From: Polyangiales bacterium
Lineage (GTDB): Bacteria; Myxococcota_A; Polyangia; Polyangiales; Polyangiaceae
Assembly (NCBI GenBank): GCA_038231275.1
Contig: JBBRLQ010000008.1
Location: forward strand, 96,001 to 160,000
DNA length: 64,000 nt
Direction of reading: 5' to 3'
Positions 2,401 to 17,218 of the stretch are shown piece by piece. Under the pieces are notes generated by a model. That model did not search any database, was not told the DNA's origin, and saw nothing but the letters and a program-made list of their open reading frames with translations. Position 1 is the stretch's first letter, and every line of letters begins with the position of its first letter. The translations under genes were made by a program, and so were the position numbers.

Positions 2401-5400
2401 TCAGGGCTTGGTGCTCTGGACAGTTACCGCCGCCATGAACTCGCACGAGTGATCGACGAGGCACTGGTGCCCGACCGGGCGCGTCAGGTAGAGGACGTCC
2501 TGTCCGTTCGTCGCGATGAATCGCGTGATGAGCCCGAGCGCGTACTGCTGCGGGTCCCACACCGAGCACGCGCCGCCCGACCAGCCGTGCACGCCGCGCG
2601 GGTCGGAGTACATGTGGAGCTGCGCCATGATCGGCGGCCCCGCGGTCCATCCTTTGCCATTGAACGCCGGCGCGGCGAGGCGCGGCTCCCACACGCGATC
2701 GAGCGCCGCGACGTCCGCGACCGCGAGATCGGCGCGACGCGCGAGGCGAAGCGGCTTCGCGAGGTGCTGCTGATCGAAGGGCAGTTTCCCCTCGCTCACC
2801 CAGTCGACGTCGAAGAGCGCCCCCTTGCACACCGACGCGTCGATCGTGTCTTTGCAGTCGGGCGCAACGATCACGTTCGCCTTGCACGACGGGCCGGCGG
2901 GCGTGCGGTTCAGGCGGCCGATGCCCTCGGTCATGTACGTGTCGATGAGCACCTGGTTCGGCGTCCGGTTCCCGAGCTCCGCGTAGAGCGACGGCGGCGC
3001 GCAGTACTCGCGGTACTCCGGGTAGCGCGTTGCGAACTCCGGCGGTAAGAACGGCACCATCCCGGCCGCGCGACCGAACGCGATCTCGGTGTGCGCGGCG
3101 ACGTAGTTGTCGCCGACGCTCGGCATGTTGAGGACGGGCCGCGGCGGACGCGTCGTTCCATCCGGTGTCACGAGCGGCTTCATCATGAAGTACGGCGCGA
3201 AGTTGATCGGATCGGCCGGGTCGAGCACCGCCTGCCCGAGCGCGAAGAATCGACGAAACAGCGGCGATTGCCGGACGAGGCCGAGGCCCTCCTGAGGCGC
3301 GACGAGCTTGCTCCCCACCGGAAAAAACTTGTCGGTGAACTGCGCGCAGCCGTCGTCGCCGGTGCACGTCGCGTCGCCGGCCACTTGACCGGGCGTCGGC
3401 GCGCGCTGCTCGAAGGTCGCGATGCGGCGCCCGACCGGCGCGTCGGGGCGCAGCGCGCAGGTGCCGTACGAGACGACGGCGTGCGCCTGCGGGTAGATCT
3501 GGAGATCGAGCGCGTCGCCGATGCTCGCGGGGACTGGCACGCGGAAATGCCCGAGCGCGTCGGTCGTGCCCGCGCAGCGCACCTCACCGGTCGTCACGTT
3601 CACGAGGCGCACGGTCATCGCGCCGCCGAGCTCGTCCGGGTGCAGGCACGCGATCTCGATTTCGGGGCTGTCGCGACCGTCGTTGACGACGAAGCGCACC
3701 GAGCGATCGTCGCCTCCGCAGTTGGTCTGCTTGTTGGTGCCGCTCGGCGGGCGCTCGGAGGCCGGCACCGCGACGACGATCGGCGTGAGCGACTGCTCCA
3801 TGACCGCGTTGGCGACGCCGTACGATCGCAGCGCGATCTCCGTGAGCCCGCCGCCGCCGACCACAGGGACCAGCGTCTCCAGCTTGTGATCCACGCCGCC
3901 CAGGATCTGCGTCACGATCCCGCCCAGCGAGCCGCCGAGCGCGCTGATGGGTCCGCCGACGTCCGGCGTGCCGTTCGCGTCGAAATCGCCCGCGAGCTCG
4001 GGCTTTCCGTCGCCGTCGAGATCCTGATCGCCGCGCGCCACGCCGTCGAACGACGCGATGATGCGCGACATCTGCATCGAGTCCAAGATCCCCTGGCGCA
4101 CGTTGTCGCGGACGTGGAAGAGGTGCGGCGTCCACCACCACCAGCCGGAATCCTTGGTGCCGTCGCCGTTCACGTCTTGCGCGCGGCCGCTCATGACCGC
4201 GTCGGCGAGCGGCGCGTAGCACATGCCAGACAGGGCGCCGCGCACGATGGCCTCTTGCCCGGGCGGCAGGCCCATCCCATGGTGCGGCATGTCGATGGTG
4301 ACCGACGCGATCCCCTGACGCGCGAGCTCGCCGCCGAACGAGATCACGTTCTCGGATTGCCCGCCGTAGCCGTGCCCCTCGATCGTGATCGGGAAGGGCT
4401 GCTTGTGGCCAGGTGTCTCCTTGGGGACGACCATCCAGAAGTGCACCTTGTCGTGACCGACCTCGCCCTCGCCGGTCTTGAAGTTCACGTGGAACCGATC
4501 GTCTGCCCCCTCGTGCGCGGGATCGCCGATGAGGTAGGGCGACTCGAAGTCGCCGATGATGACGTGGTCGATGTGCGAGAGGCTCTCGACGAGCGCCGCG
4601 TTGTCGCGCGCGCTGCCGCCTCCGACCTTGCCGAGGATGTCGGTGAATTGCTTCAGCACGCTGGGATCGCCGAGATCGAACACGTAGGGCTTCGTCGCCG
4701 GCACCGCGCACTTCGGATCGGCCTGCCATCCCGCAGGCTGCGCCTCGCCGCCGCCGACCTGCCCGGCCGCGCTCGCGACCAGGACCTTCGGCGGGAACTG
4801 CGTGGCGAAGCGTGCGAACGGGCCCTTGCCGTAGAGCCCGTCGCGGAGCAGGCGCAAGTCTTCCTGTGTGGGTTGCGTCGTGAACGTCCAGGTGAACGCA
4901 ACATGGTCGAGGCCGGTGCCGGCCAGATCGCCGAAGTACGCCGAGTGCCGCGCGTCGTTGAGCGCGCCGCGCAGGCGGTCGGCGCCGTTTTTTTGCTGCG
5001 GGTGGTGCACGTACTCGAACGGTGAGAGCACCGGGCGATGATCGGCGCCGAGCAGGCGATCGGTGAAGACGACGGCGTACTCGGTCTTCTCGTCCATCGG
5101 CACCAGCGGCCGCAAGATGAGCGTGTCGGTCTCGCGCTCGTACCAGGTGAGGAGGTTGTCGTACGTGTCGATGCCGGCGGCGCCGAGCGTGTTGGGGTGA
5201 TCGAGCACGCCGTCGAAGTCGAGGTCGAGATCGGGGCGGTACTGCGCTTGCGTGAGGCCGGCGCCCTCTTCGCGCGTCTCGAAGAGGAGGTTCGAGTCCT
5301 TCGCGTGCGGATCGTTCGCCCAGTAGAGGCCCGGCTCGCGGAGGACGGCCTGCAAGCTGCCCGAGCCCATGTCGAGCACGACGGGCACGCCGGTGGTCAG

Positions 5401-5856
5401 GTTGACGAGGTAGACCGGATCGTCCGCGAAATCGAAATCGCCGCGCGGCATGCGCCTCCGGACCTCGCCCAGGTCGAGCGCGGCGTCGCGCGGATCGGCG
5501 TTGGGGCTCTTGTCGAACGACGCCCAGATCGGCGCGTATGTCCCCCACCCCTCGAGATCGTTGAGCCCGCCTCGGGCCATGCGCTCCATGTTGGTCGGCG
5601 CGACGAGGCTCACGTTCACGCGGAGCCCGGTGCGGCTCGTCGGATCGGGGAACGTGGCGATGTCGTTCGGGAGCGGGACCTCGGGGAGCGGGCGACGCGA
5701 GGTGTCGAAGACGACGCGCGCGCCGGGGCCGCTCGGCGTTCGACGGAGACCGACCGGCGCGGAGTCCACGGCACACGCCGCGAAGGCCAGCGCCGCGGAG
5801 GCGACGAGCGCCAGCCGGGGCAGAGAAGAACGACGCGAAATCACGTGCTGTTTCAT
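2401..5856 (-). CDS. Large lipoprotein alpha/beta-hydrolase (extracellular lipase/esterase-like) with N-terminal Ig-like region
   Basis: 1151 aa, lipobox FAAC, GHGYGG oxyanion-type motif, nucleophile elbow GGSLGG, several DxDxDG Ca-binding-like loops. Confidence 0.75.
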   Translation of the reverse strand: MKQHVISRRSSLPRLALVASAALAFAACAVDSAPVGLRRTPSGPGARVVFDTSRRPLPEVPLPNDIATFPDPTSRTGLRVNVSLVAPTNMERMARGGLNDLEGWGTYAPIWASFDKSPNADPRDAALDLGEVRRRMPRGDFDFADDPVYLVNLTTGVPVVLDMGSGSLQAVLREPGLYWANDPHAKDSNLLFETREEGAGLTQAQYRPDLDLDFDGVLDHPNTLGAAGIDTYDNLLTWYERETDTLILRPLVPMDEKTEYAVVFTDRLLGADHRPVLSPFEYVHHPQQKNGADRLRGALNDARHSAYFGDLAGTGLDHVAFTWTFTTQPTQEDLRLLRDGLYGKGPFARFATQFPPKVLVASAAGQVGGGEAQPAGWQADPKCAVPATKPYVFDLGDPSVLKQFTDILGKVGGGSARDNAALVESLSHIDHVIIGDFESPYLIGDPAHEGADDRFHVNFKTGEGEVGHDKVHFWMVVPKETPGHKQPFPITIEGHGYGGQSENVISFGGELARQGIASVTIDMPHHGMGLPPGQEAIVRGALSGMCYAPLADAVMSGRAQDVNGDGTKDSGWWWWTPHLFHVRDNVRQGILDSMQMSRIIASFDGVARGDQDLDGDGKPELAGDFDANGTPDVGGPISALGGSLGGIVTQILGGVDHKLETLVPVVGGGGLTEIALRSYGVANAVMEQSLTPIVVAVPASERPPSGTNKQTNCGGDDRSVRFVVNDGRDSPEIEIACLHPDELGGAMTVRLVNVTTGEVRCAGTTDALGHFRVPVPASIGDALDLQIYPQAHAVVSYGTCALRPDAPVGRRIATFEQRAPTPGQVAGDATCTGDDGCAQFTDKFFPVGSKLVAPQEGLGLVRQSPLFRRFFALGQAVLDPADPINFAPYFMMKPLVTPDGTTRPPRPVLNMPSVGDNYVAAHTEIAFGRAAGMVPFLPPEFATRYPEYREYCAPPSLYAELGNRTPNQVLIDTYMTEGIGRLNRTPAGPSCKANVIVAPDCKDTIDASVCKGALFDVDWVSEGKLPFDQQHLAKPLRLARRADLAVADVAALDRVWEPRLAAPAFNGKGWTAGPPIMAQLHMYSDPRGVHGWSGGACSVWDPQQYALGLITRFIATNGQDVLYLTRPVGHQCLVDHSCEFMAAVTVQSTKP

Positions 5857-6048
5857 GTGCGCACCCGGCAGGTCGATTTTAGAGCAAAGGCTCTAACACG
5901 GGCCCCTCGCCTCCGCCATCGCGGCGCGTGCGACGCGGCGGACGCGCGGAGGACCGGAGAGGCCGCGACGCGCACGTCGCACCGGCGCGCGATTCCTCGG
6001 GAAAAACGCCGATCCCGCGCGGGCATGGCCCCTGCTGTGGAGCGGCGC

Positions 6049-7287
6049 ATGATGGAGATCTCGCTCGGCCGGTTCGCGCTTCCCCTGCTCCTCCTCTCGT
6101 TCGCGGGGGCCGTGGGTTGCCTCGGCGACACGCTGCCGAAGGACGAGGCGGCGTCGAGCTCTGGTGGCGGGACGAGCGGCCACGCGTCGAGCGGATCGAG
6201 TGGCGGGACCAGCGGGACCAGCGGTGGAACCAGCGGAAGCTCTGGGACCAGCGGTGGCACCAGCGGGACCAGCGGTGGCACCAGTGGAAGCTCTGGGACC
6301 GCCGGCGATGGCGGTTCGGCCGGACCCGAGGCGCCGTGCACGAAGACGTCGAAGACGTACGGCTCGATGACGGCATGGGAATGCATCCCGACCGGCCTCG
6401 AAGGGAAGTCGGGGCCGCCCGCCGGCCTCGTCGTCGCGATGCACGGCTACACGCAGGGCGTCGTCGATCCCGCGTCGCCGAACAAGACGTGGGGCTTCCG
6501 TCCGACGTCGCAGTGGGCGGTGCTCGCGCAGAAGCACAAGTTCTACGTCCTCTACCCCGACCACGGCACCTCGGCGTTCCAGTGGTACGCGTACTTCGGC
6601 ACGAGCGGGATCGGGCGCACCGACCTCGAGCCGTCGCAGATCGCAGCGATGGTGAAAGACTTCCAGGCCGAGCACAACGTCGACCCCACCAAGGTCTTCG
6701 CGAACGGGCTCTCGGCCGGCGCCTTCATGACGACAGTCATGCTCGCGACCTACCCCGACGTCTTCGCCGGCGGCTCGATGTTCGAGGGCGGCGCATACGG
6801 GTGCTCGACGTCGTGCGCGGCGCTCGGCAAGAAGGGCAACGGCTGGACGTGGCCCGGCAACCACGCCGCGTCGCTCGTCACCGGCGCGTACGGGACCGTG
6901 TGGCAGAGCGCGTCCGCCAAGAAGCCACGCCTGATGGTCTTCCAGGGCGACGCCGACGGTGCCGTGACCCCCGAGAACCTCGCCGACGTGACGCAGCAGT
7001 GGAAGGGCGCCGTCGGGATCACCGACGCGGGCGCCACCAAGACGCTCAAGGGCGCGCAGTACACCGAGTACTCGAAGGACGGTCAGGTGATGCTCGCCAC
7101 GGTGCTCATGCCCGGCATCGGCCACGGCACGCCCGTCGATCCGGGCTCCGGCGCCGACCAGGGCGGATGGGATCCGAACCCCAGCAAGACCGCGTCGAGC
7201 GACACCAACACCGACCAGGACTGGACCAACACCGCCGGCATCTACGGCCCGTATTACTCGGCGAAGTTCTTCGGCCTCATCCCCTGA
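6049..7287 (+). CDS. Lipoprotein PHB-depolymerase/LpqC-family esterase
   Basis: Start re-placed at ATG 6049 (GGAG upstream). Lipobox AVGC, GTS linker, VVAMHG, ANGLSAGAFM lipase box, ATYPDVF, FQGDAD, GIGHG. Confidence 0.85.
   Translation: MMEISLGRFALPLLLLSFAGAVGCLGDTLPKDEAASSSGGGTSGHASSGSSGGTSGTSGGTSGSSGTSGGTSGTSGGTSGSSGTAGDGGSAGPEAPCTKTSKTYGSMTAWECIPTGLEGKSGPPAGLVVAMHGYTQGVVDPASPNKTWGFRPTSQWAVLAQKHKFYVLYPDHGTSAFQWYAYFGTSGIGRTDLEPSQIAAMVKDFQAEHNVDPTKVFANGLSAGAFMTTVMLATYPDVFAGGSMFEGGAYGCSTSCAALGKKGNGWTWPGNHAASLVTGAYGTVWQSASAKKPRLMVFQGDADGAVTPENLADVTQQWKGAVGITDAGATKTLKGAQYTEYSKDGQVMLATVLMPGIGHGTPVDPGSGADQGGWDPNPSKTASSDTNTDQDWTNTAGIYGPYYSAKFFGLIP
6199..6300 (+). repeat. Imperfect 51-bp tandem duplication encoding (SGGTSGTSGGTSGSSGT)x2
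   Basis: Visible in both DNA and translation of the esterase linker. Confidence 0.8.
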
Positions 7288-7315
7288 GCGATCGGCGCAG
7301 ACGCGGACCGAGGCG

Positions 7316-7726
7316 TCAACGCGGAGGCGTTGGATGCGTGCCCGGTGCGCACGGCGGAACTTCTCCGGCGGACCCGTCGAGGTAGCACGACGACAGAACG
7401 ACCAGGTGGCCGTCGGCGGTACAGTAGTAGGAGTCGTTGAGGATGTCGGAGCAGAGCCCTGCGTTGCACGCGAGGACCGTGATGCCGCCCTTGTACGGAA
7501 ACCTGCACGGGCACGAGCCTGGCCCCGCGTCGACGGGCTGGCAGTCGTAATAGGGATCGTTCGGACCCACGCCGGCCTCGCCGAACAGCGGCCCCCCGTC
7601 GGCACCCGAGCCACCGCCCTCGCCACCGGCGTCGACGGACGGGTCGAACGTGCTGGGGTGCGACGCGGTTCCACAGGCCAGCGCAAGGGCGATCGCGGAG
7701 AGGGCGGCGATCCGGCTCTTCGACAT
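7316..7726 (-). CDS. Small Cys-rich lipoprotein
   Basis: MSKSRIAALSAIALALAC lipobox from ATG 7726, DAG/DGG linker, 8 Cys in the C-terminal domain. Confidence 0.75.
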   Translation of the reverse strand: MSKSRIAALSAIALALACGTASHPSTFDPSVDAGGEGGGSGADGGPLFGEAGVGPNDPYYDCQPVDAGPGSCPCRFPYKGGITVLACNAGLCSDILNDSYYCTADGHLVVLSSCYLDGSAGEVPPCAPGTHPTPPR

Positions 7727-7880
7727 GGCGCGAACCTTACCGCGCGCACGCGCGTCCGTCTCGCGGCGAAATGCTGCTCGACGGCGCGGCGCGGACCGCA
7801 ACGTCGCCGCCGCGTCCAAGCGATCGACTCGCCCGCCGCCTCGCAAGCTCGATCGCGATGGGATCGCGTGCTCGAGGACC

Positions 7881-8693
7881 TCAGATCCTCCAGTCGCGCT
7901 TCACCTTTTCGAAGAACGACGACTCGAACACGCCGTCCACGCGGATCGAGTAGCGAAAGAACGGATCCGCTTCGACGCCGTGGTAGCCGTGATCGTTGAA
8001 CCAGTAGGCGCGCGACACCACGAAGGTCTTCTTCCTCCGCGCCTCGTCCCACAAGAAGAGTCGCTTGTTTTTCTTCGGGCACAGCGTGATGAAATGCTCC
8101 GCGCTCTCGTCCTCGGCGTCGCCGTCGTGATGGACGGTGCCGTGATGGTCGGCGTCGAGCCCGAGGATGTTGCAGCGGCCGACCACGCGAAACGGCAGGC
8201 TCTTCACGAACGCGACGAGGCGCGGGAAGTGGAGCTTGGCCTCGGCGGTGAAGTCCTTCCCCTCGCCGTTCGACTTGTCCTCCCAGCTCGTGGTCGGGAT
8301 CATTTCGTAGAAGACCTGCCACGGGAAGTAGACGCCGTAGCGGTACTTGAGGAGGAGCATCTGCTTGCGGCTGAGAGGATGCTCGCGCTCCTCGCCGAAC
8401 GCGTACTCGCGCAGGCGCGCCGGATCGAACGCGCGCGGCGCGTCGGCGAGGGACACCAACGTCCGAAGCTCGTCGTCGCTCATGCGCGCGAGGACGTGGC
8501 CGTAGTCGACGTAAGGGGCGCCTTCGAGCGACGGCGGAACGATGCCCATCGTCTTGTGGCTGCCGCCGGTGTATTCGGTCGGCACGAGCGCGAGGCCGAG
8601 CGAGATCTCGTCGTGCAGCGCCTCGAGGGCGCCGACGTCGACGTAGCGTTCGAGGTCGATGAACGGGTGCCCGGCGATGCCCCAGACCGGCAT
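7881..8693 (-). CDS. 2OG-Fe(II) oxygenase-like protein (Asp/Asn beta-hydroxylase-like cupin fold)
   Basis: HHD (HxD) ... YHGV ... RYSIR pattern matching the HxD...H triad and RxS 2OG-binding motif. Confidence 0.6.
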   Translation of the reverse strand: MPVWGIAGHPFIDLERYVDVGALEALHDEISLGLALVPTEYTGGSHKTMGIVPPSLEGAPYVDYGHVLARMSDDELRTLVSLADAPRAFDPARLREYAFGEEREHPLSRKQMLLLKYRYGVYFPWQVFYEMIPTTSWEDKSNGEGKDFTAEAKLHFPRLVAFVKSLPFRVVGRCNILGLDADHHGTVHHDGDAEDESAEHFITLCPKKNKRLFLWDEARRKKTFVVSRAYWFNDHGYHGVEADPFFRYSIRVDGVFESSFFEKVKRDWRI

Positions 8694-8730
8694 GCGGGCA
8701 GGTAGAGCACGGACCGTACCCGGCCTCGCA

Positions 8731-8745
8731 CGGCACGATTTCGGC
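8731..8745 (+). promoter_or_regulatory. Possible sigma-54 promoter upstream of the ATP-grasp operon
   Basis: CGGCACG-ATTT-CGGC gives GG-N10-GC with a good -24 box and a weak -12 box. Confidence 0.3.
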
Positions 8746-8916
8746 CGTTTTCAAGCCTCCCCAGCATCTGCCATGGCAGCGCGCCTCACCTCGCCGGCGC
8801 GGCGCGGCACGACTTGCCCCGACCCGGGCGCCGGACGCGCGCCCGCCACGACGACCTCAGGGCTTCTCTCGCGTGGCGTGTGTCTTGCTCTTTCGAAAGG
8901 GCTGCGAGGTGACGCG

Positions 8917-10185
8917 ATGGTCGACGCCGGATCGATCGCGGTCGTACGGGCTTGTCCCGGCGATCCGCTGGAAGAGAGGCCGCTCGCGCGCGAGCTGGCC
9001 GAGCGCTATTTCGTCTTCGACGCGTGCGTCGGGGGCAACCGCCGCGTGGACGTGCATCCGCTCGTCTTGTCGCCCGCGTTGCACGACGACGCCGTGCGCG
9101 CCGCGGAGGATGTCGCGCGGATGATCGGGGACGTCGCCGAGCTCGCGCACGACGACGGCGGAGAGCGCGCGCACTATGGCCTGCATCCCGACACCGCGTC
9201 CCTCGCGGCCGCGTCGTGGCGCGCCGGCGATCGCGCCTGCCTCGCGCGCGTCGATCTCTTGCTCGACGATCGCGGACGCTTCCAGGCGTGCGAGATCAAC
9301 GCGGACTGCCCGGGCGGTCACAACGAGGCGCTGGGATTGCCGCGCCTCGCGCGCGCGGCGGGCTTCGCGGACGGCACCGATCCCACACGTGTCGTCGACG
9401 CCGCGGTCGATCGGCTCGAGGAGCTCGCCGACGGCGGCGCAGTCGCCCTCGTGTACGCGACGGCGTACGCGGAGGACCTTCAGGTGTGCGCGCTCCTCGC
9501 GCGACGGCTCATGGCGCGCGGCGTCGAGGCCCTCCTGGCGCCGCCCACTGCGCTCCACGTCCGCGGCGACGAGCTGTGCTTCGGCCGCCGCCCGGTGCGC
9601 GTCCTCTACCGCTTCTTCCCGACGGAGTGGATGGCCGGTCAGCGCAACGTCGGCGACATCGCGGCGGCGGTGGCGTCGGGGCGCGTGCGAACGCTCTCGA
9701 GCTTCTCGCACATCTTCGCGCAGTCGAAGGTCGCCTTCGCCCGGGCGTGGGCGCATGGTCCGTGGCTTCATCCCGTCGATCGCGAGGTCCTCGCGGCGCG
9801 CGTTCCTTTCACCGCCGACGTGGCAACGGTTCCGGCGACGAGCCTCGTGGGCGATCGCGCGGGGTGGGTCGTCAAGCGCGCGATGGGGCGCGTCGGGGAT
9901 CAGGTCTTCGTCGGCGCGCTCTTCGGCGAGGGAGAGTGGACCGCGATCGTCGCCGACGTGATCGCCGCGCGCGCGGCCGGCGAACGCTGGCTCGCGCAGC
10001 GCTACGTGCGCCAGACGCCGCTCAACACGCCGTGGGGGCCGCGCTACGTCACCCTCGGCGCCTACGTCTTGGACGGCCGCTTCGTCGGCTATTTCGCGCG
10101 CATCACGAAGGAGACCCACGTCTCGCACGACGCGCTCTGCGTCCCCGTCTTCGTCGCACGCGGCCAGGATGGGGCGGCGCGGTGA
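8917..10185 (+). CDS. Glutathionylspermidine-synthetase-like ATP-grasp amidoligase (YgiC/YjfC-like)
   Basis: Start ATG 8917 after GAGG. RVD...CEINADCPGG, LYRFFPTEWM, QSK, WVVKRAMGRVG, LAQRYV, LGAYVL...ARI motifs. Confidence 0.85.
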   Translation: MVDAGSIAVVRACPGDPLEERPLARELAERYFVFDACVGGNRRVDVHPLVLSPALHDDAVRAAEDVARMIGDVAELAHDDGGERAHYGLHPDTASLAAASWRAGDRACLARVDLLLDDRGRFQACEINADCPGGHNEALGLPRLARAAGFADGTDPTRVVDAAVDRLEELADGGAVALVYATAYAEDLQVCALLARRLMARGVEALLAPPTALHVRGDELCFGRRPVRVLYRFFPTEWMAGQRNVGDIAAAVASGRVRTLSSFSHIFAQSKVAFARAWAHGPWLHPVDREVLAARVPFTADVATVPATSLVGDRAGWVVKRAMGRVGDQVFVGALFGEGEWTAIVADVIAARAAGERWLAQRYVRQTPLNTPWGPRYVTLGAYVLDGRFVGYFARITKETHVSHDALCVPVFVARGQDGAAR

Positions 10186-11246
10186 GGAGCGCGCTCGTCC
10201 TCGCGCCGCTCGCGCTCTACTCGGCGGCGTGCGCGCTCGAGCCGGGCTCGATCCCGCCGCAGTCTCCGGCGACGGAGTGGGAAGAGCGCCCGCAGGCGCC
10301 GCCCGAGCCGGTCGTCTTTCAGCCGTCCCCGCGCGCCGACACGATCGCGCGATGGCAGCTCCCCTCGGACAACGCGTGGGCGCGCTTCGCGAAGCTCACG
10401 CTCGTCATGGCGATGGGCGTCGCGCCTCGGACCGAAGCGCTCGTCGCGGCGCCGCGCTCGCTCGAGGTCACGAAGGCCGAAGCGGCAGCGCGCTCGCTCG
10501 CGCAGACGACAATGGCGCCCGACGCGATGTGGATCGTAGATCTGCACGGCGCGGCGTCGGTGGCGTTCGGCGCGACACTCAGCCAGCACGCGCTTGTTCC
10601 GATCGCGAACGTCCTCACGTTCAACAACTGGCCCGCCGAAAACGAGCTTGTCCCCGCCGAGGAGACGCTCGCCGCCCTGGTGCACACGAGCCCAAAGCTC
10701 CCTCCTCGCGGCGCATCGGCGGCGCGACCGGTGTTCCTCCTCGACGCGTGGCGGCTCGCCTACAAGGGCACCGAGCCCGACGACGACACCACCGACAACC
10801 GCTACTACCTCACGCCATCCGATCTCCCGGACTCCGGGCACCTCCGCGCCGCAGGGCTGCGCAGTGTGTATTACGTCGTCGCGAGCCTGCGCGAGCATCC
10901 ACAAGAGGAGGACGATCTCCACGCGATCTTCCTCGACTACCAGCAGGCCGGCATCACGCTCCACATCGTCGACCTCGACGGCCTCACGCGCCCGGTCGTC
11001 TTCCGCGAGCCAGCGCCGGAGCCGGAGGCCATCGTGCCGTACGATGAGCCGCGCCTCCTCTGGGTCGAAACACGCCCCACTGTGCTCGATGACCCCTATT
11101 TTTACGGCCGATCGCAGGGCGGCTTCGGCGGCCTCCACGGCGGCGGGCATTCGATCAACGTCGGAGGCGGGCACCCCATCACGGGCGGCGGCGGGCACCA
11201 CGGCGGCGGGAGCTTCGGCGTCGGGTGGGGCGGCGGCGGCGGGTGA
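10182..11246 (+). CDS. Putative lipoprotein with C-terminal GRSQGGFGG/His-Gly-rich tail
   Basis: GTG overlaps the ligase stop (GTGA). YSAAC lipobox-like motif, globular middle domain, ends GGFGGLHGGGHS...GGGSFGVGWGGGGG. Confidence 0.75.
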   Translation: MRSALVLAPLALYSAACALEPGSIPPQSPATEWEERPQAPPEPVVFQPSPRADTIARWQLPSDNAWARFAKLTLVMAMGVAPRTEALVAAPRSLEVTKAEAAARSLAQTTMAPDAMWIVDLHGAASVAFGATLSQHALVPIANVLTFNNWPAENELVPAEETLAALVHTSPKLPPRGASAARPVFLLDAWRLAYKGTEPDDDTTDNRYYLTPSDLPDSGHLRAAGLRSVYYVVASLREHPQEEDDLHAIFLDYQQAGITLHIVDLDGLTRPVVFREPAPEPEAIVPYDEPRLLWVETRPTVLDDPYFYGRSQGGFGGLHGGGHSINVGGGHPITGGGGHHGGGSFGVGWGGGGG

Positions 11247-11262
11247 TGTCGCGTCGGCGTCG

Positions 11263-11997
11263 TCAGAACCACGCCTGCCACACGCCGTCCTCGTGGAGGA
11301 CGTGGACGGTGGCCGAGACGCGGTCGACGTCGCCGGGGAAGCTCAGGATCTGATGGAGACGGTACGCGTCGAACGCGACGAGCTCGCCCGGCGTGTAAAG
11401 CACCGTCGTCGACGCCGCGTGCGGGCCAGGGTGCTCCGGAAAATCCTCACCGTCGTAGAAGCGATCCCACACGCGTAGGCCACCGCCGTGCGGCGGCATC
11501 TGGAGCATGAGGACGCACGACAGCGACGGAAGTCGCGCCTCGAGCTGCGCGTCGCTCATTCCCTCCGTGTCGAAGTGCACCTCGCCCCCGCGACGCGCCA
11601 CCTGCGACCCGGCCGGGAAAATATGCACCCCTGGGCCGCACCATCCGGGGCGCCGAGTCACGGCGGCGCCGAGGTGGTCGCTCACGACGCGGAGCACGGT
11701 TTCCTGAAGGCCGGGGACCGCTTCCTCGACGATCGCGTCGGATTCGGCGGCGCCGTCGAAGTACTCGTCCTCGCGATCCTCCTCGAAGTGCGTGTACCAG
11801 GCGCGGCCCAGCGTGTACTGAACCCCGGCAAAATTGGCCGTCCAGCGCGCCCGCGCCGCGTAGACGCCTCGCGTGATTCGCGCGCACGTCGCGGCGTCCA
11901 TGACCCCCGCGAATCGCGCTGCTCGCTCCGCGGCGCACCGGCTCGTGAGCGACGGCGGGAAGAAAGCGGGGGCGCCGAACGTGGACGCGAGGTGCAT
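11263..11997 (-). CDS. 2OG-Fe(II) oxygenase
   Basis: VHFD ... GGGLRVW ... GELVAFD ... LHQI ... RVS. The start may instead be the internal ATG (MDAATC). Confidence 0.75.
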   Translation of the reverse strand: MHLASTFGAPAFFPPSLTSRCAAERAARFAGVMDAATCARITRGVYAARARWTANFAGVQYTLGRAWYTHFEEDREDEYFDGAAESDAIVEEAVPGLQETVLRVVSDHLGAAVTRRPGWCGPGVHIFPAGSQVARRGGEVHFDTEGMSDAQLEARLPSLSCVLMLQMPPHGGGLRVWDRFYDGEDFPEHPGPHAASTTVLYTPGELVAFDAYRLHQILSFPGDVDRVSATVHVLHEDGVWQAWF

Positions 11998-12069
11998 CGT
12001 TCCGTCTCAGAGCAAACTCGAGGCCACGAACGGCCCGTCGGGGTACGATGTCGGGAGAAGGCGCCGACG

Positions 12070-13029
12070 ATGGACCTCGAGCGAATGCTCCGGATGTGCC
12101 GCGAGGGGCAGTGGAAGACGAGCGATCTGGACTGGTCGCACCCTCCGCGCGCCATGCCCGAGGACGACGAGATCGCGATCGTCCAGCTCTTCACCGACAT
12201 GGCCGGCATCGAGCGCCTCGCCGGCGCGCTCTTCGTGGAGCAGCACAGGCGCGCCACCGATCCCACCTTGCGCGAGATCTTCGCCACGTTCATCAAGGAC
12301 GAGGTGCGGCACGCGCAGACCGCGCAGCTCCTCGCCGACCACTACGACGTGCACCACTACAAGGTGTACCGAACGAGCGAGACGCTGGAGCGGGTCTTCC
12401 CCGCGTTCGTCGACGCGATCCGTTACCTCGCCGACGACGTCGCCAACGCGTACATCACGGCGGGCGAGCTGATCCTCGACGTCGCCCTCCTCCGCTCGGT
12501 CGACGACTACGTTCATGATCCGATGAGCGCGCAGGCGATGGCGCTCATCAACCGCGACGAGTCGCGGCACATCGCGATCGACTACTACATGGTCGAGCAC
12601 TACGCGTCGGACGAGTACAAAGCGCGGCGGCGTACCGTGCGGCGTCCGATGCGCGACGAGGCGCGCGCCTGGAGCGCCTTCGCGCGGCTCGTCTGGCTCG
12701 CGCGGCCGTTCTTCCGCGACGTCTTCTTCTTTCCGATGGAGCGCATCGACCCGTCCGGCAACCGGCTGCGCGAGGCGTTCAAGCGAATCCAGCTCCTCAC
12801 CGCCAAGCCCAAGGTCCAGGAGCTGCCGTTCGTGCGCTTCATGCAGACGATCCAGGATCTTCACAACAGCCGGTTCGCGGGGCCGCGGACGCGCTCGATA
12901 CTCGCCCGGATCTCTGGCGCCGAGCCGCGCTTTCTGGAGCAGCTCGCCACCGACGAAGAGATCGCGCGGGCGTGCGCCATGTCGTTCGACGCGCTCGCCG
13001 AGGAGGCGCTCGCGGCCAAGCGCGCCTGA
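12070..13029 (+). CDS. Ferritin-like di-iron protein (AurF/acyl-ACP desaturase-like superfamily)
   Basis: ATG 12070 with GGAG. QW..SDLDW, E...DEVRH and E...DESRH paired ExxH motifs. Confidence 0.8.
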   Translation: MDLERMLRMCREGQWKTSDLDWSHPPRAMPEDDEIAIVQLFTDMAGIERLAGALFVEQHRRATDPTLREIFATFIKDEVRHAQTAQLLADHYDVHHYKVYRTSETLERVFPAFVDAIRYLADDVANAYITAGELILDVALLRSVDDYVHDPMSAQAMALINRDESRHIAIDYYMVEHYASDEYKARRRTVRRPMRDEARAWSAFARLVWLARPFFRDVFFFPMERIDPSGNRLREAFKRIQLLTAKPKVQELPFVRFMQTIQDLHNSRFAGPRTRSILARISGAEPRFLEQLATDEEIARACAMSFDALAEEALAAKRA

Positions 13030-13037
13030 CGCGCGCG

Positions 13038-13046
13038 TGATACGTT
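13038..13046 (+). promoter_or_regulatory. Extended -10 element (TGaTACGTT), probable leaderless promoter
   Basis: 7 nt upstream of ATG 13054, no Shine-Dalgarno. Confidence 0.45.
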
Positions 13047-13053
13047 CTTGACG

Positions 13054-14417
<1,364 letters not shown>

Positions 14418-14421
<4 letters not shown>

Positions 14422-15755
14422 TGCGTGCGCGCGTCGTCGCCATCGCCTTCGGGTGCGCCGTCCTCGCCACGCTGGCGACCGCCGCGTGCCGGCTGACGAG
14501 CGGCCTGACCGGCGGCGAGGAGCCCGACGCCGGCGGCGGGACCGAGGCGGGCTGCGGCGCCGATCTCGCGCGCGCGATCGACAACTGCGGCGCCTGCGGG
14601 CACGCGTGCGCCGCCGGGCCCAACGCGTTCGCGGCGTGCGTCGATGGCGGCTGTGTCTTCTCGTGCGCCGGCGGGTTCGGCGACTGCGACGACGCCGGCG
14701 CGGCGACCGGTTGCGAGACGAACCTGCAGACGACGCGGAGCGGCTGCGGCAAATGCGGCCACGACTGCCAGGGCGGCAACTGCCAGGGCGGCAACTGTCA
14801 GCCCATCGTCCTCACGTCGGTCATCAACGCGCCGGTCCACATCGTGCTCGACGACTCCAACGTCTACGGCATCAACGCGTACGGAACGGTGACGCGCATC
14901 AGCAAGGGCGGCGGCACGCTGAGCCTCCTCGCGTCTGGAGACACGACGGCGCAGTCTCCGGCGCCGCGCATCACGCTCGGGAGCGGGGCCGTCTACTACA
15001 CGTCGTTCGGCGCGGCCGACGCCGGTGACGCCGCGGCTCCAGGCTCGATCTCGATGGTCCCCCTCGACGGCGGCAAGCCGCAGACGTTGACCTCGGCGAC
15101 GCAGCCCTACGCGATCGACGCCACGCAGAACTCCATCTACTGGTCCGAGGGCAACCCCGCGAATTCGCCGTACACGACGTCGATCAAGCGCTGCAAGCTC
15201 CCGGGCTGCAGCCCAATCAACACCGAGGTCGCGACGCAGCCCGGCCGCATCTTCTCGCTCGTCGCCGACGCCGCGAACCTCGTGTGGGCAAACGCCGGCA
15301 CACCGCCCAACACTCCCGAGAGCGCCGTGACGCGCTGCACGCCCGGAAGCTGCTCGGGCTCCTTCTTCCCGCTCGCGAGCACGCCGCCGTCGCCGTCCAG
15401 CCCCTTCGCGCTCGCGGTCGACAAGACCACCGTCTACTTCACCACCGCGTCGGGGTTCGTCGCGTCGTGCCCGTTCGCGGGGTGCAGCGGAGACGCCGCG
15501 CGCCTGGACTCGTTCCAGTTCACCCCCCGCTACATCGCGACCGACGGCAACACCGTCTATTGGACGAACGGCGATGGCACGATCAAGAGCGTCCCGCGCG
15601 GTGGCCCCCCGTCCTCCGAGCGCACCGTCTACCAGTCTCGGGGAGCCTCGCCGTGGGACATCGCGCTCGACCCAAACGCCATTTATTGGACCGACGTGAA
15701 CGGCGTCCAGGGCGGCCCCCCCGGAGCCTCCGCGCTGCTCAAGCTCGCCCGATGA
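14418..15755 (+). CDS. Lipoprotein with Cys-rich (NCGACGxxC) repeats and YWTD-like beta-propeller (cassette copy 1)
   Basis: Overlaps the EBP stop. ATAAC lipobox, DNCGACGHAC and GCGKCGHDC, repeated A-x-D-x-x-x-(I/V)YW(T/S) blades. Confidence 0.85.
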
Positions 15756-15802
15756 CGCTGCTCGGCGTTTGAGAATCGCGCCCGCTGAACTACGCTTTGC
15801 CG

Positions 15803-17218
15803 GTGGCCGCCCCCACGATCCTCGGACGTTACGAGCTCCACGCGTCGATCGCGACGGGCGGAATGGCGAGCATCCATCTGGGGCGCGTGCGCGGCGCGGC
15901 GGGCTTCGAGCGTACGGTCGCCATCAAGCGGCTGCACCCGCAGTTCGCCAGTGACCCGCATTTCGTCGCGATGTTCATGGACGAGGCGCGCCTCGTCGCG
16001 CGCATTCGTCACCCCAACGTGGTGCCGATCCTCGACGTCGTGGCGGAGCAGAACGAGCTCTTTCTCGTCATGGAGTACGTGCACGGCGAGTCGCTCGCCG
16101 GCCTCGTGTTACCCCGCGGAGGTCTCGAAGGAGACCCGGTGCCGCCGGGGATCGCGGCGGCGATCTTCGTCGACGTGCTGCATGGCCTCCACGCCGCGCA
16201 CGAGGCGACGACGTCGGCAGGCGAGCGCCTTGGAATCGTGCACCGCGACGTGACCCCGCACAACGTGCTGGTGGGCGTCGACGGCGCGTCGCGCATTGCC
16301 GACTTCGGCATCGCGATGGCGACCGAGCGTGCGCAGAAGACCGCCGCGGGACAGGTGAAGGGCAAGCTGTCGTACATCGCGCCCGAGCAGCTGCAGGGGA
16401 CCGCGGTCGAGCGAACGACGGACGTGTACGCGGCGGCGGTGTCGCTCTGGGAGGCGCTCGCGGGATCGGTGCTCTTCTCGGGCGAGCACGAGGGGCGCAT
16501 CGTGGAGCGCGTCCTCGTCGGCGCGACGCGGGCGCCGAGCGCGCTCGCGCGAGGGATTCCGCACGCGCTCGACGAGGTCGTGATGCGCGGCCTTGAGATG
16601 CGACCGGCCAAGCGGTTCCAGACCGCGCGCGACATGGCGCTCGCGCTCGAGAAGAGCATCGCGCTTCCGCCGGCTTCGGAGGTTGGCCAGTGGGTCGCGA
16701 CGCGCGCGCAGGAGAAGCTCGCGAAGCGCGCCGCGGCGATCGAAGCGCTCGATCGCGCGCCCGATCTCGCGCCGATGCCGACGCCGGCCGGCATGTCGAC
16801 GCCTCCCGCGTCGGCGCTGGGCCCCGGCTCATGGCCACGCGGCGGGCATCAAGGACCGAGCCCGACGTCGACGCCGCCTCCGTTCGTGCCGCCGCCGATC
16901 GCGCCGTCGCCGGGGCGCGCGTGGGTCGCCGTGCTCGCGCTCCTCGTCGTGGCGTCGCTCGTCGGAGGTGGCGGCGTGTGGGCCCGCGCGCGTCGTGCGA
17001 GCGCGACGCCGCCGTTCCAGGATACCGCGCCCTCCTCCTCATGGGGCGACCTGGAGCCACCACCCGACACCTCCGCCGCGCCGCCGCCCACCGCCGCAAT
17101 TACGACGCCGAATCGACAGCCACGGCCCCCGCGCCCCGGCAAGGGGAGCGACGCTTGCAAGCCGCCCTACACGCGCGACAGCGAAGGTCGTAAGATCTAC
17201 AAACGCGAGTGTCTCTGA
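15803..17218 (+). CDS. Membrane Ser/Thr (Hanks-type) protein kinase with C-terminal CKPPY...CL motif (cassette copy 1)
   Basis: GGMA, VAIKRL, HRDVTPHN, DFG, YIAPE, TM helix, Pro-rich stalk. Start GTG 15803 or TTG 15797. Confidence 0.93.
   Translation: MAAPTILGRYELHASIATGGMASIHLGRVRGAAGFERTVAIKRLHPQFASDPHFVAMFMDEARLVARIRHPNVVPILDVVAEQNELFLVMEYVHGESLAGLVLPRGGLEGDPVPPGIAAAIFVDVLHGLHAAHEATTSAGERLGIVHRDVTPHNVLVGVDGASRIADFGIAMATERAQKTAAGQVKGKLSYIAPEQLQGTAVERTTDVYAAAVSLWEALAGSVLFSGEHEGRIVERVLVGATRAPSALARGIPHALDEVVMRGLEMRPAKRFQTARDMALALEKSIALPPASEVGQWVATRAQEKLAKRAAAIEALDRAPDLAPMPTPAGMSTPPASALGPGSWPRGGHQGPSPTSTPPPFVPPPIAPSPGRAWVAVLALLVVASLVGGGGVWARARRASATPPFQDTAPSSSWGDLEPPPDTSAAPPPTAAITTPNRQPRPPRPGKGSDACKPPYTRDSEGRKIYKRECL

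Follow-up and report, generated by a model that had tools for sequence, protein, structure and literature searches.

In a 64,000-nucleotide (nt) stretch of the genome of a soil-type myxobacterium of the Polyangiales (contig JBBRLQ010000008.1, positions 96,001 to 160,000; hereafter the window), the gene for a predicted ATP-grasp ligase (LIG) overlaps that of a predicted lipoprotein with a glycine-rich C-terminal tail (PART). A gene for a 2-oxoglutarate (2OG)-Fe(II) oxygenase lies on each side of this pair (X270 and OXY244), and a gene for a ferritin-like protein (FERR) follows (Table 1). At the ~70% G+C content of the window, plain lists of open reading frames (ORFs) are crowded with false frames, and genes were therefore called from the third-position GC content (GC3) by frame together with the translations. 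This analysis recovers, at the same coordinates, all five genes named in a preliminary description of the locus. It also bears out the GTGA overlap reported there, in which the PART start codon GTG (10182-10184) interlocks with the LIG stop codon TGA (10183-10185). What that description had missed is that both oxygenase genes are located on the strand opposite to LIG and PART, and therefore the five genes do not constitute one operon or transcript.

Table 1. Coordinates of the genes and elements discussed in the text; positions refer to the window unless a contig is named.
Feature	Position	Strand	Description
LIG	8917-10185	+	422 residues from the ATG that fits the family alignment; open frame from 8659
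PART	10182-11246	+	354 residues, GTG start
PART motif F307-Y-x-R310-x-x-G-G-F-G-G317	11100-11132	+	invariant motif
PART tail, residues 318-354	11133-11243	+	disordered, Gly/His-rich, acid-free; terminal Gly-Gly
Ligase-PART cassette	8695-11258		2,564 bp: 223-bp leader, LIG, PART, 12 bp
Sigma-54-type -24/-12 promoter-like element	8874-8889	+	TGGCGTGTGTCTTGCT; in the cassette leader, ends 28 nt before the ligase ATG
X270	7881-8693	-	270 residues, GC3 frame analysis
OXY244	11263-11997	-	244 residues, convergent with PART
Type-2 cluster	C6:284616-291182		order: X270 paralog, GSP_synth ligase, tandem-DUF350 membrane protein, X270 paralog, PART-like gene, 202-residue gene, OXY244 paralog
FERR	12070-13029	+	319 residues
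FHA/sigma-54 activator	13054-14421	+	455 residues
Cys-rich MXAN_6577-like secreted protein	14418-15755	+	
Ser/Thr protein kinase	15797-17218	+	Pkinase, 116.5 bits
Predicted extracellular short-chain polyhydroxyalkanoate depolymerase	6049-7287	+	NCBIfam e_dPHAscl_type1, 168.5 bits

By its sequence, LIG is assigned to the GSP_synth family of ATP-grasp acid-amine ligases, with Escherichia coli YgiC and YjfC as its nearest relatives of solved structure. It matches Pfam GSP_synth (PF03738) with 57.4 bits against a cut-off of 29.3, over profile positions 39-364 of 371, and yields no RimK-family match in Pfam or NCBIfam. When a profile of 44 ligases was searched against the PDB, YgiC (7uk8, E 7.4e-7) ranked first, followed by YjfC (7uk6, 1.5e-4), the glutathionylspermidine synthetase GspS (2io7 and 3o98, 7.5e-4) and the fungal ligase Cp1B (9cjn, 6e-3); a single-sequence phmmer search with LIG found no solved structure at E<=0.01. 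The identity between LIG and YgiC is only 25% (BLASTP, E 2e-8). Across the 44 ligases Arg111, Asp113, Glu126, Asn128, Asp130, Lys271, Lys320 and Arg395 are invariant, and the LIG segment CEINADCPGG aligns with LENNADTPTS of YgiC. Asp113, Glu126, Asn128 and Asp130 are presumably the ATP-grasp ligands of the metal and ATP site. Unlike GspS (2io7), which belongs to the same ATP-grasp family, LIG lacks an amidase (CHAP) domain.

PART is a predicted lipoprotein. Its lipobox cysteine, Cys17 (10230-10232), is at least 90% conserved in an alignment of 50 sequences, and a lipoprotein-type signal occurs in 111 of the 120 best among 413 database relatives. All 413 are annotated as hypothetical and are devoid of Pfam domains, and those with a named source come from Myxococcales or Polyangiaceae. 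PART itself has no match in Pfam, NCBIfam or PADLOC. The structural model, with a predicted local distance difference test score (pLDDT) of 79.4, features a confident α/β domain at about residues 50-310, while the tail from residue 317 onwards is disordered (pLDDT <50). Foldseek retrieved no PDB match for this model at E<=1e-3 (best 3gwz, E 0.025), VIA-align over 48,161 chains reached a best Z of 4.7 with generic three-layer α/β folds, and the ESM Atlas gave no usable match; these searches neither prove the fold to be new nor reveal a role. The family is nevertheless large, as a profile search of 1.84 billion representatives detected the PART domain in 1,328 cluster representatives at E<=1e-3. 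In distant members the lipobox gives way to an '...ELLGARWWQ...' segment at the N-terminus, together with a membrane anchor. One of the distant proteins (P0441, 536 residues) places a Cys-x2-Cys zinc-ribbon-like segment and a membrane anchor in front of the PART domain, and it too terminates in a Gly/Ser-rich tail. Among the database proteins, two apparent ligase-PART fusions (P0448 and P0457) proved to be out-of-frame gene calls rather than genuine fusions, and a further one (P0388) looks degenerate.

The partnership of ligase and lipoprotein suggested in the preliminary description holds far beyond this genome. In a scan with one genome per species, 80 loci with a PART relative were collected, almost all of them labelled Myxococcota; four, on uncultured bins, are labelled Pseudomonadota/Gammaproteobacteria. 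In 78 of the 80, the gene immediately upstream of PART, in the same orientation, encodes a ligase of the LIG type (type 1), and one of the two exceptions is cut at a contig end. The junction could be measured at 66 loci; at 37 of them ligase and PART genes share 4 nt and at 13 a single nucleotide, which makes 50 with overlapping stop and start codons. Ligase and tailed lipoprotein are hence a fixed, translationally coupled pair. The genome harbours a second such pair on contig C45 (62% and 49% identity), whose lipoprotein tail reads ...FYARARGGFGGVHG...GFGFGG (also rendered ...FYARARGGFGGVHGVPSGGRGGFGFGG). Of 301 Myxococcota genomes sampled evenly, 26 contain a PART-domain match at E<=1e-5 and four, this one included, a full-length type-1 match (E <1e-100); the four all belong to the taxonomic family of the window. 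Of the 47 type-1 loci flanked by 4 kb or more in both directions, 23 also carry, upstream of the ligase and in its orientation, a conserved gene whose secreted product of ~220-250 residues has no Pfam match; examples are L093:6902-7648 (+) and C45:18043-18708 (-), and the window's locus lacks it.

The C-terminal part of PART reads ...FYGRSQGGFGGLHGGG...GVGWGGGGG and includes the sequence FYGRSQGGFGG, and both the motif and the chain end are conserved. Among the 120 best relatives, 113 carry [FYW][FYW]xRxx[GS]GFGG and 118 terminate in Gly-Gly, compared with a baseline of 54 such ends in 6,476 long high-GC3 ORFs of this genome. In the 50-sequence alignment Phe307, Arg310, Gly313, Phe315 and Gly316 are invariant, and Tyr308, Gly314 and Gly317 are conserved to at least 90%. 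The segment past the GGFGG motif varies in length from 0 to 57 residues (median 24). Its composition is distinctive: the tails of the PART relatives contain 41.7% Gly, 10.8% His and only 0.4% Asp plus Glu, against 14.5% Asp plus Glu in the body of the proteins, and 111 of 119 tails are devoid of Asp and Glu altogether. In such tails the C-terminal α-carboxylate is therefore the sole carboxyl group of the flexible stretch. Distant PART-domain proteins retain R[SG]G[SG][FWY]G[RG] near the C-terminus, as in ...GRSGSFGRAGGFGG.

A tail of this type is also found in E. coli, where ygiB-ygiC and yjfM-yjfC pair GSP_synth-family ligases, the nearest solved relatives of LIG (7UK8 and 7UK6), with lipoproteins of the DUF1190 family. 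The tail motif ascribed to the E. coli proteins in the preliminary description was verified on the genome sequence NC_000913: YgiB ends in ...TRGGFGES...SRSMGG and YjfM in ...SRGGYGRSSSARGHWGG, so that both carry RGG[FY]G and a terminal Gly-Gly. In an alignment of 13 DUF1190 sequences including YgiB and YjfM, Arg196, Gly197, Gly198, Gly200, Gly222 and Gly223 are invariant. A database search with YgiB listed 120 matches, which were solely orthologs of 82-100% identity, and their count of 117/120 for the Gly-Gly end is not independent evidence. Between DUF1190 and PART no model match was obtained at E<=0.1, nor was any found genome-wide, with E. coli as positive control, and hhalign of the two family alignments returned a probability of 0.6%. 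From these comparisons we take the globular domain of PART to be unrelated to DUF1190; as had been surmised, it is a larger domain of a different kind with the tail kept.

On the basis of these sequence comparisons, we regard the ligase-PART cassette as the Polyangia version of the ygiB-ygiC/yjfM-yjfC module, in which PART, although not a DUF1190 member, occupies the same position beside the ligase. In each case the ligase gene adjoins a predicted lipoprotein gene on the same strand, and the partner bears RGG[FY]G near its C-terminus and ends in Gly-Gly. The Polyangia locus differs in that LIG precedes its partner, opposite to the E. coli order, and its stop codon overlaps the next start, in that PART has a domain ~130 residues larger and a longer, Gly/His-rich tail, and in that two 2OG oxygenases are associated with it. 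The same ligase family thus recurs in a distant phylum with an unrelated partner domain, yet RGGFG-type motif, acid-free tail and Gly-Gly are preserved; this exchange of the domain with retention of the tail suggests that selection acts on the tail.

The two flanking enzymes had been described as 2OG-Fe(II) oxygenases, and our analysis agrees for both. X270 matches no Pfam or NCBIfam family at E<=0.1; its 1,370 database relatives are all hypothetical, and none of the 120 listed has a Pfam domain. Its AlphaFold model (pLDDT 93.2) returned 43 PDB matches in Foldseek at E<=1e-3 with probabilities up to 1.00, and those listed are almost all 2OG-Fe(II) oxygenases, together with a few cupin-fold proteins. 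The structural neighbours include proline hydroxylases, AspH, prolyl-4-hydroxylase, AlkB and PHD2, at modest template modelling (TM) scores of 0.23-0.36 on the query. Since His188-x-Asp190, His238, Arg247 and Ser249 are moreover invariant in 44 sequences, the model and the putative iron triad identify X270 as a divergent 2OG-Fe(II) oxygenase with double-stranded β-helix fold. OXY244 scores 16.4 bits with Pfam 2OG-FeII_Oxy_3, below the cut-off of 27, whereas its paralog of ~48% identity in the same genome passes (2OG-FeII_Oxy_3 29.1 bits, WelO5 31.0 bits). Its residues His141-x-Asp143, His215 and Arg226 are invariant in eight sequences, and paralog and triad together mark it as a 2OG-Fe(II) oxygenase; with the Asp present in this triad, the site is of the hydroxylase and not the halogenase type.

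Whether these oxygenases belong with the ligase was assessed from their genomic context. A genome of the same genus (G001) is collinear with window positions 5001-16000 at 81-85% DNA identity, except that the cassette is missing: in the blastn comparison with L145 (G001:C69), the blocks 7879-8694 and 11259-16000 abut at 10836/10837. In G001, OXY244 and X270 share a strand, and only 5 nt separate the OXY244 stop from the X270 start; the cassette therefore occupies precisely the gap within an OXY244-X270 operon. Its borders exhibit no terminal direct or inverted repeats, and its history is either an insertion here or a clean loss in G001. This arrangement raises the alternative that the cassette landed by chance in an operon of another pathway and that only ligase and PART form the system, as would fit the opposite strands and the retention of the OXY244-X270 operon without cassette in G001. 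Several further observations count against a functional tie. X270 and OXY244 adjoin the pair in only two of the 80 genome loci (L055 and L060), the other 78 type-1 loci having neither gene within 10 kb; a 100% complete genome (G015) encodes the pair but no X270 that we could find; and several X270 genes stand alone, with no ligase in the flank fetched (L140, L146, L148 and L149).

Other loci speak for the tie. Of 21 metagenome contigs anchored on close relatives of the window's X270, eight feature a type-1 ligase adjoining X270 and OXY244, and the gene order takes at least three forms; of the remaining contigs, L140 contains no ligase in at least 5 kb on each side, and 12 are either too short or truncated on the side that matters. 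One short contig (L144, 4,435 nt) displays two ligase/PART/OXY244 sets back to back with fragmentary matches, perhaps the decayed remains of duplicated systems, perhaps an assembly chimera. Across 61 related genomes a PART-type match was detected in 13, X270 in 15 and both in 12, and tblastn located a PART-like gene in two of the three X270-only genomes; as these genomes are kin and not independent samples, the co-occurrence is no statistical test. A maximum-likelihood tree of 87 ligases from a quick search unites the seven other oxygenase-adjacent type-1 ligases in one clade (support of 100 in the Shimodaira-Hasegawa-like approximate likelihood ratio test, SH-aLRT). The window's ligase branches outside this clade (support of 87 for its own small group), which suggests that its juxtaposition with the oxygenases arose separately, as a second event; a single origin of the type-1 adjacency is less likely.

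The association extends to distant relatives of the ligase. A third ligase of this genome, of ~30% identity, is encoded on contig C6 in what we term a type-2 cluster (GSP_synth 51.6 bits), together with X270 and OXY244 paralogs, a membrane protein with two DUF350 domains (101.6 bits) and a PART-like membrane protein of 470 residues that ends in ...SRNGSWTRSSGWGGG (also given as ...GSWTRSSGWGGG). The type-2 PART relatives possess an N-terminal membrane anchor. In the C6 cluster and nine related loci, DUF350 and PART-like genes occur in 10/10, the 202-residue gene in 9/10, and X270 and OXY244 in 7/10 each, corresponding to six of the nine relatives. The linkage of X270 and OXY244 to these ligases is accordingly recurrent, yet not obligatory. 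That both families recur beside so distant a ligase with its PART-like gene, that they adjoin type-1 pairs in changing order, that the juxtaposition in the window appears to be separate from that of the other oxygenase-adjacent clade, and that 12 genomes share both markers among 13 and 15 carriers, even if these are kin, all count against a chance landing, which we regard as quite unlikely. We instead think it probable, without being certain, that X270 and OXY244 belong functionally to the ligase-PART system.

The third iron enzyme of the locus fares differently. FERR is by sequence a ferritin-like di-metal carboxylate protein, in line with the initial assignment: it scores 28.1 bits with AurF, marginally below the cut-off of 29.6, and matches R2-like ligand-binding oxidase entries of the PDB at E ~5e-4 to 2e-3. 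It was encountered, however, at none of the 80 genome loci and none of the 21 metagenome loci (0/101 others), and G001, which is without the cassette, retains FERR along with the sigma-54 activator and the downstream Cys-rich gene. FERR is thus a neighbour by local synteny and not a member of the system; both it and the sigma-54 activator are very probably unrelated neighbours. Of the three iron oxygenases that had been linked to the pair, X270 and OXY244 keep this place, with the type-2 relatives and metagenome contigs in favour and the 78 loci without them as a reservation, whereas FERR loses it; the five-gene arrangement as a unit is not conserved.

For the function of the pair, the chemistry of the ligase family offers a guide. 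GspS forms an acyl-phosphate on the C-terminal glycine carboxylate of glutathione and subsequently an amide with a polyamine. By analogy, LIG would phosphorylate the C-terminal glycine carboxylate of the PART tail and then amidate this glycine with a polyamine-like amine, the acyl substrate being a protein tail instead of a tripeptide, and X270 and OXY244 would hydroxylate the amine or a tail residue. Because the family chemistry acts on a C-terminal glycine, because the motif is invariant and because the only carboxylate of the tail is that of its terminal glycine, amidation of this glycine with a polyamine-type amine would be the most likely reaction of the ligase; we advance it tentatively and rate it somewhat short of an even chance.

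Several results weigh against this proposal. The strongest is topology: the lipoprotein signal of PART and the membrane anchor of its type-2 counterparts predict a tail outside the cytoplasm, while LIG, X270 and OXY244 carry no signal peptide and need ATP or 2OG. With PART exported and the ligase cytoplasmic, the modification would have to precede or accompany export. Furthermore, the searches of this 94%-complete genome yielded no S-adenosylmethionine decarboxylase, and the spermidine-synthase-like matches are weak (42, 36 and 33 bits). In the wider PART superfamily, only 45 of 106 representatives of at least 290 residues terminate in Gly-Gly; 66 of the same 106 end in Gly and 23 in Ser, though some of these may be truncated calls. 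Finally, the likeness between PART and DUF1190, whose family alignments hhalign did not relate, comes down to a low-complexity motif of five residues and the Gly-Gly end; each family conserves both, yet so short a likeness does not permit a statistical test across the two.

The predicted topology would be respected if the cytoplasmic ligase, with or without the oxygenases, made a free peptide-amine or hydroxylated amine conjugate for export, in the paralogous cluster perhaps through DUF350, and PART served as periplasmic receptor, sensor or metal-binding effector, with its tail not ligated but binding the metal or metabolite. The lipoprotein signal in 111 of 120 relatives and the signal-less enzymes fit such a pathway, as does the DUF350 protein at 10/10 type-2 ligase loci, which has its equivalent in yjfL of E. 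coli. A 10.8% share of His in the tails is compatible with metal binding, and the structural neighbours of X270 include free-amino-acid hydroxylases, for example 4p7w. According to two sources, YgiC and YjfC act on peptides and spermidine in vitro (PMC11762307, PMC12568646), and a further one terms DUF1190 a 'metal-chelating lipoprotein' (PMC11237479). Left unexplained, however, are the motif and terminal Gly-Gly shared by two unrelated partner families, the loss of all other carboxylates from the tail, and the tight translational coupling; in addition, no biosynthetic gene for a peptide substrate recurs beside the ligase-PART pair. We consider such a small-molecule pathway possible, but on the unlikely side.

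Amidation of the PART tail should also be distinguished from the maturation of a ribosomally synthesized and post-translationally modified peptide (RiPP), in which cleavage would liberate the tail as a glycine-rich peptide tailored by ligase and oxygenases. With a conserved motif ahead of its variable tail, and with an ATP-grasp enzyme and oxygenases encoded nearby, PART does resemble a leader and its core. The supposed precursor, however, is a 350-residue lipoprotein with a well-folded conserved domain, its tail varies freely in length (0-57 residues) and sequence, and the ligase belongs to GSP_synth and not to the graspetide ATP-grasp families. Nor do genes for a protease, an exporter or immunity recur around the pair in the 47 loci whose flanks reach 4 kb or more in both directions. 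A RiPP-like precursor is consequently highly improbable.

Precedents exist for an ATP-grasp ligase that acts on the flexible C-terminal tail of an adjacently encoded protein, as LysX does on LysW and RimK on S6, and in LysW systems the tethered group is then processed by further enzymes. Those ligases are of the RimK/LysX type, and their substrates are cytoplasmic carriers with acidic tails in which Glu is the acceptor. PART, in contrast, presents an acid-free tail (0.4% Asp plus Glu) with a Gly end on a predicted exported lipoprotein, and its ligase is of the GSP_synth family.

With regard to the E. coli enzymes, RefSeq names both YgiC and YjfC 'peptide--spermidine ligase'. A 2025 TolC review credits YgiC with peptide-spermidine ligase activity, states that its physiological substrate is unknown and lists YgiB as without known function (PMC11762307). 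The survey of phage shock protein (PSP) systems by Ravi et al. (2024, PMC11237479) describes PspA-linked polyamine operons with an ATP-grasp peptide ligase, YjfL/DUF350, a DUF1190 lipoprotein and DUF2491. These operons share with the loci examined here a GSP-synthetase-like ligase, DUF350 in the type-2 cluster, as in E. coli yjfL-yjfM-yjfC, and a cell-surface lipoprotein; they differ in that no PspA, CesT/Tir or DUF2491 was seen at our loci and in that the lipoprotein is of another family. The available portion of the same survey mentions neither 2OG oxygenases nor the tail motif. In the literature searched, partly in excerpt and exclusive of the primary YgiC/YjfC paper and a 2009 amidoligase survey, so that priority is uncertain, nothing was found that connects these ligases with the DUF1190 tail or with 2OG oxygenases, or that mentions the PART family or a tail common to both partner families.

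A sigma-54-type promoter-like element lies in the cassette leader. It is the sole TGGCRYN5TTGCW match on both strands of the window (expected 0.09; at least one match in 9 of 100 shuffles), and a similar element (TGGC-N7-TTGC[AT]) precedes the ligase in only one of 70 relatives. A scan for sigma-70-type promoters identified no site, and a search of positions 7700-13200 against Rfam gave no match at E<=0.1. The single terminator-like site that was found is within FERR. No defence-family match was obtained with PADLOC for any of X270, LIG, PART, OXY244 and FERR.

Downstream of FERR, positions 13054-17218 encode the FHA/sigma-54 activator, the Cys-rich secreted protein and the Ser/Thr protein kinase on one strand (+); they may represent an FHA-kinase signalling unit, and their synteny in the sister genome extends at least to the Cys-rich gene. 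On the other side of the locus, the predicted polyhydroxyalkanoate depolymerase carries a long Gly/Ser/Thr-rich linker behind its signal peptide.

Irrespective of the reaction catalysed, X270 and PART each represent a large unannotated family tied to GSP_synth ligases, in the former case of 2OG oxygenases. In its broadest form, our proposal would make the tail the physiological substrate of YgiC/YjfC-type ligases in general, with DUF1190 and PART lipoproteins amidated at their terminal glycine and, in Polyangia, also hydroxylated by the two 2OG oxygenases. We judge this generalization unlikely. If it held, it would constitute a new kind of bacterial protein C-terminal modification, by which the lipoprotein would gain a free amine as a handle, for example for attachment to the cell wall by covalent or ionic bonds, somewhat comparable to the terminal lysine of Braun's lipoprotein. 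The locus thereby offers a testable substrate hypothesis for the ligases of a well-known pair of E. coli y-genes, YgiC and YjfC.

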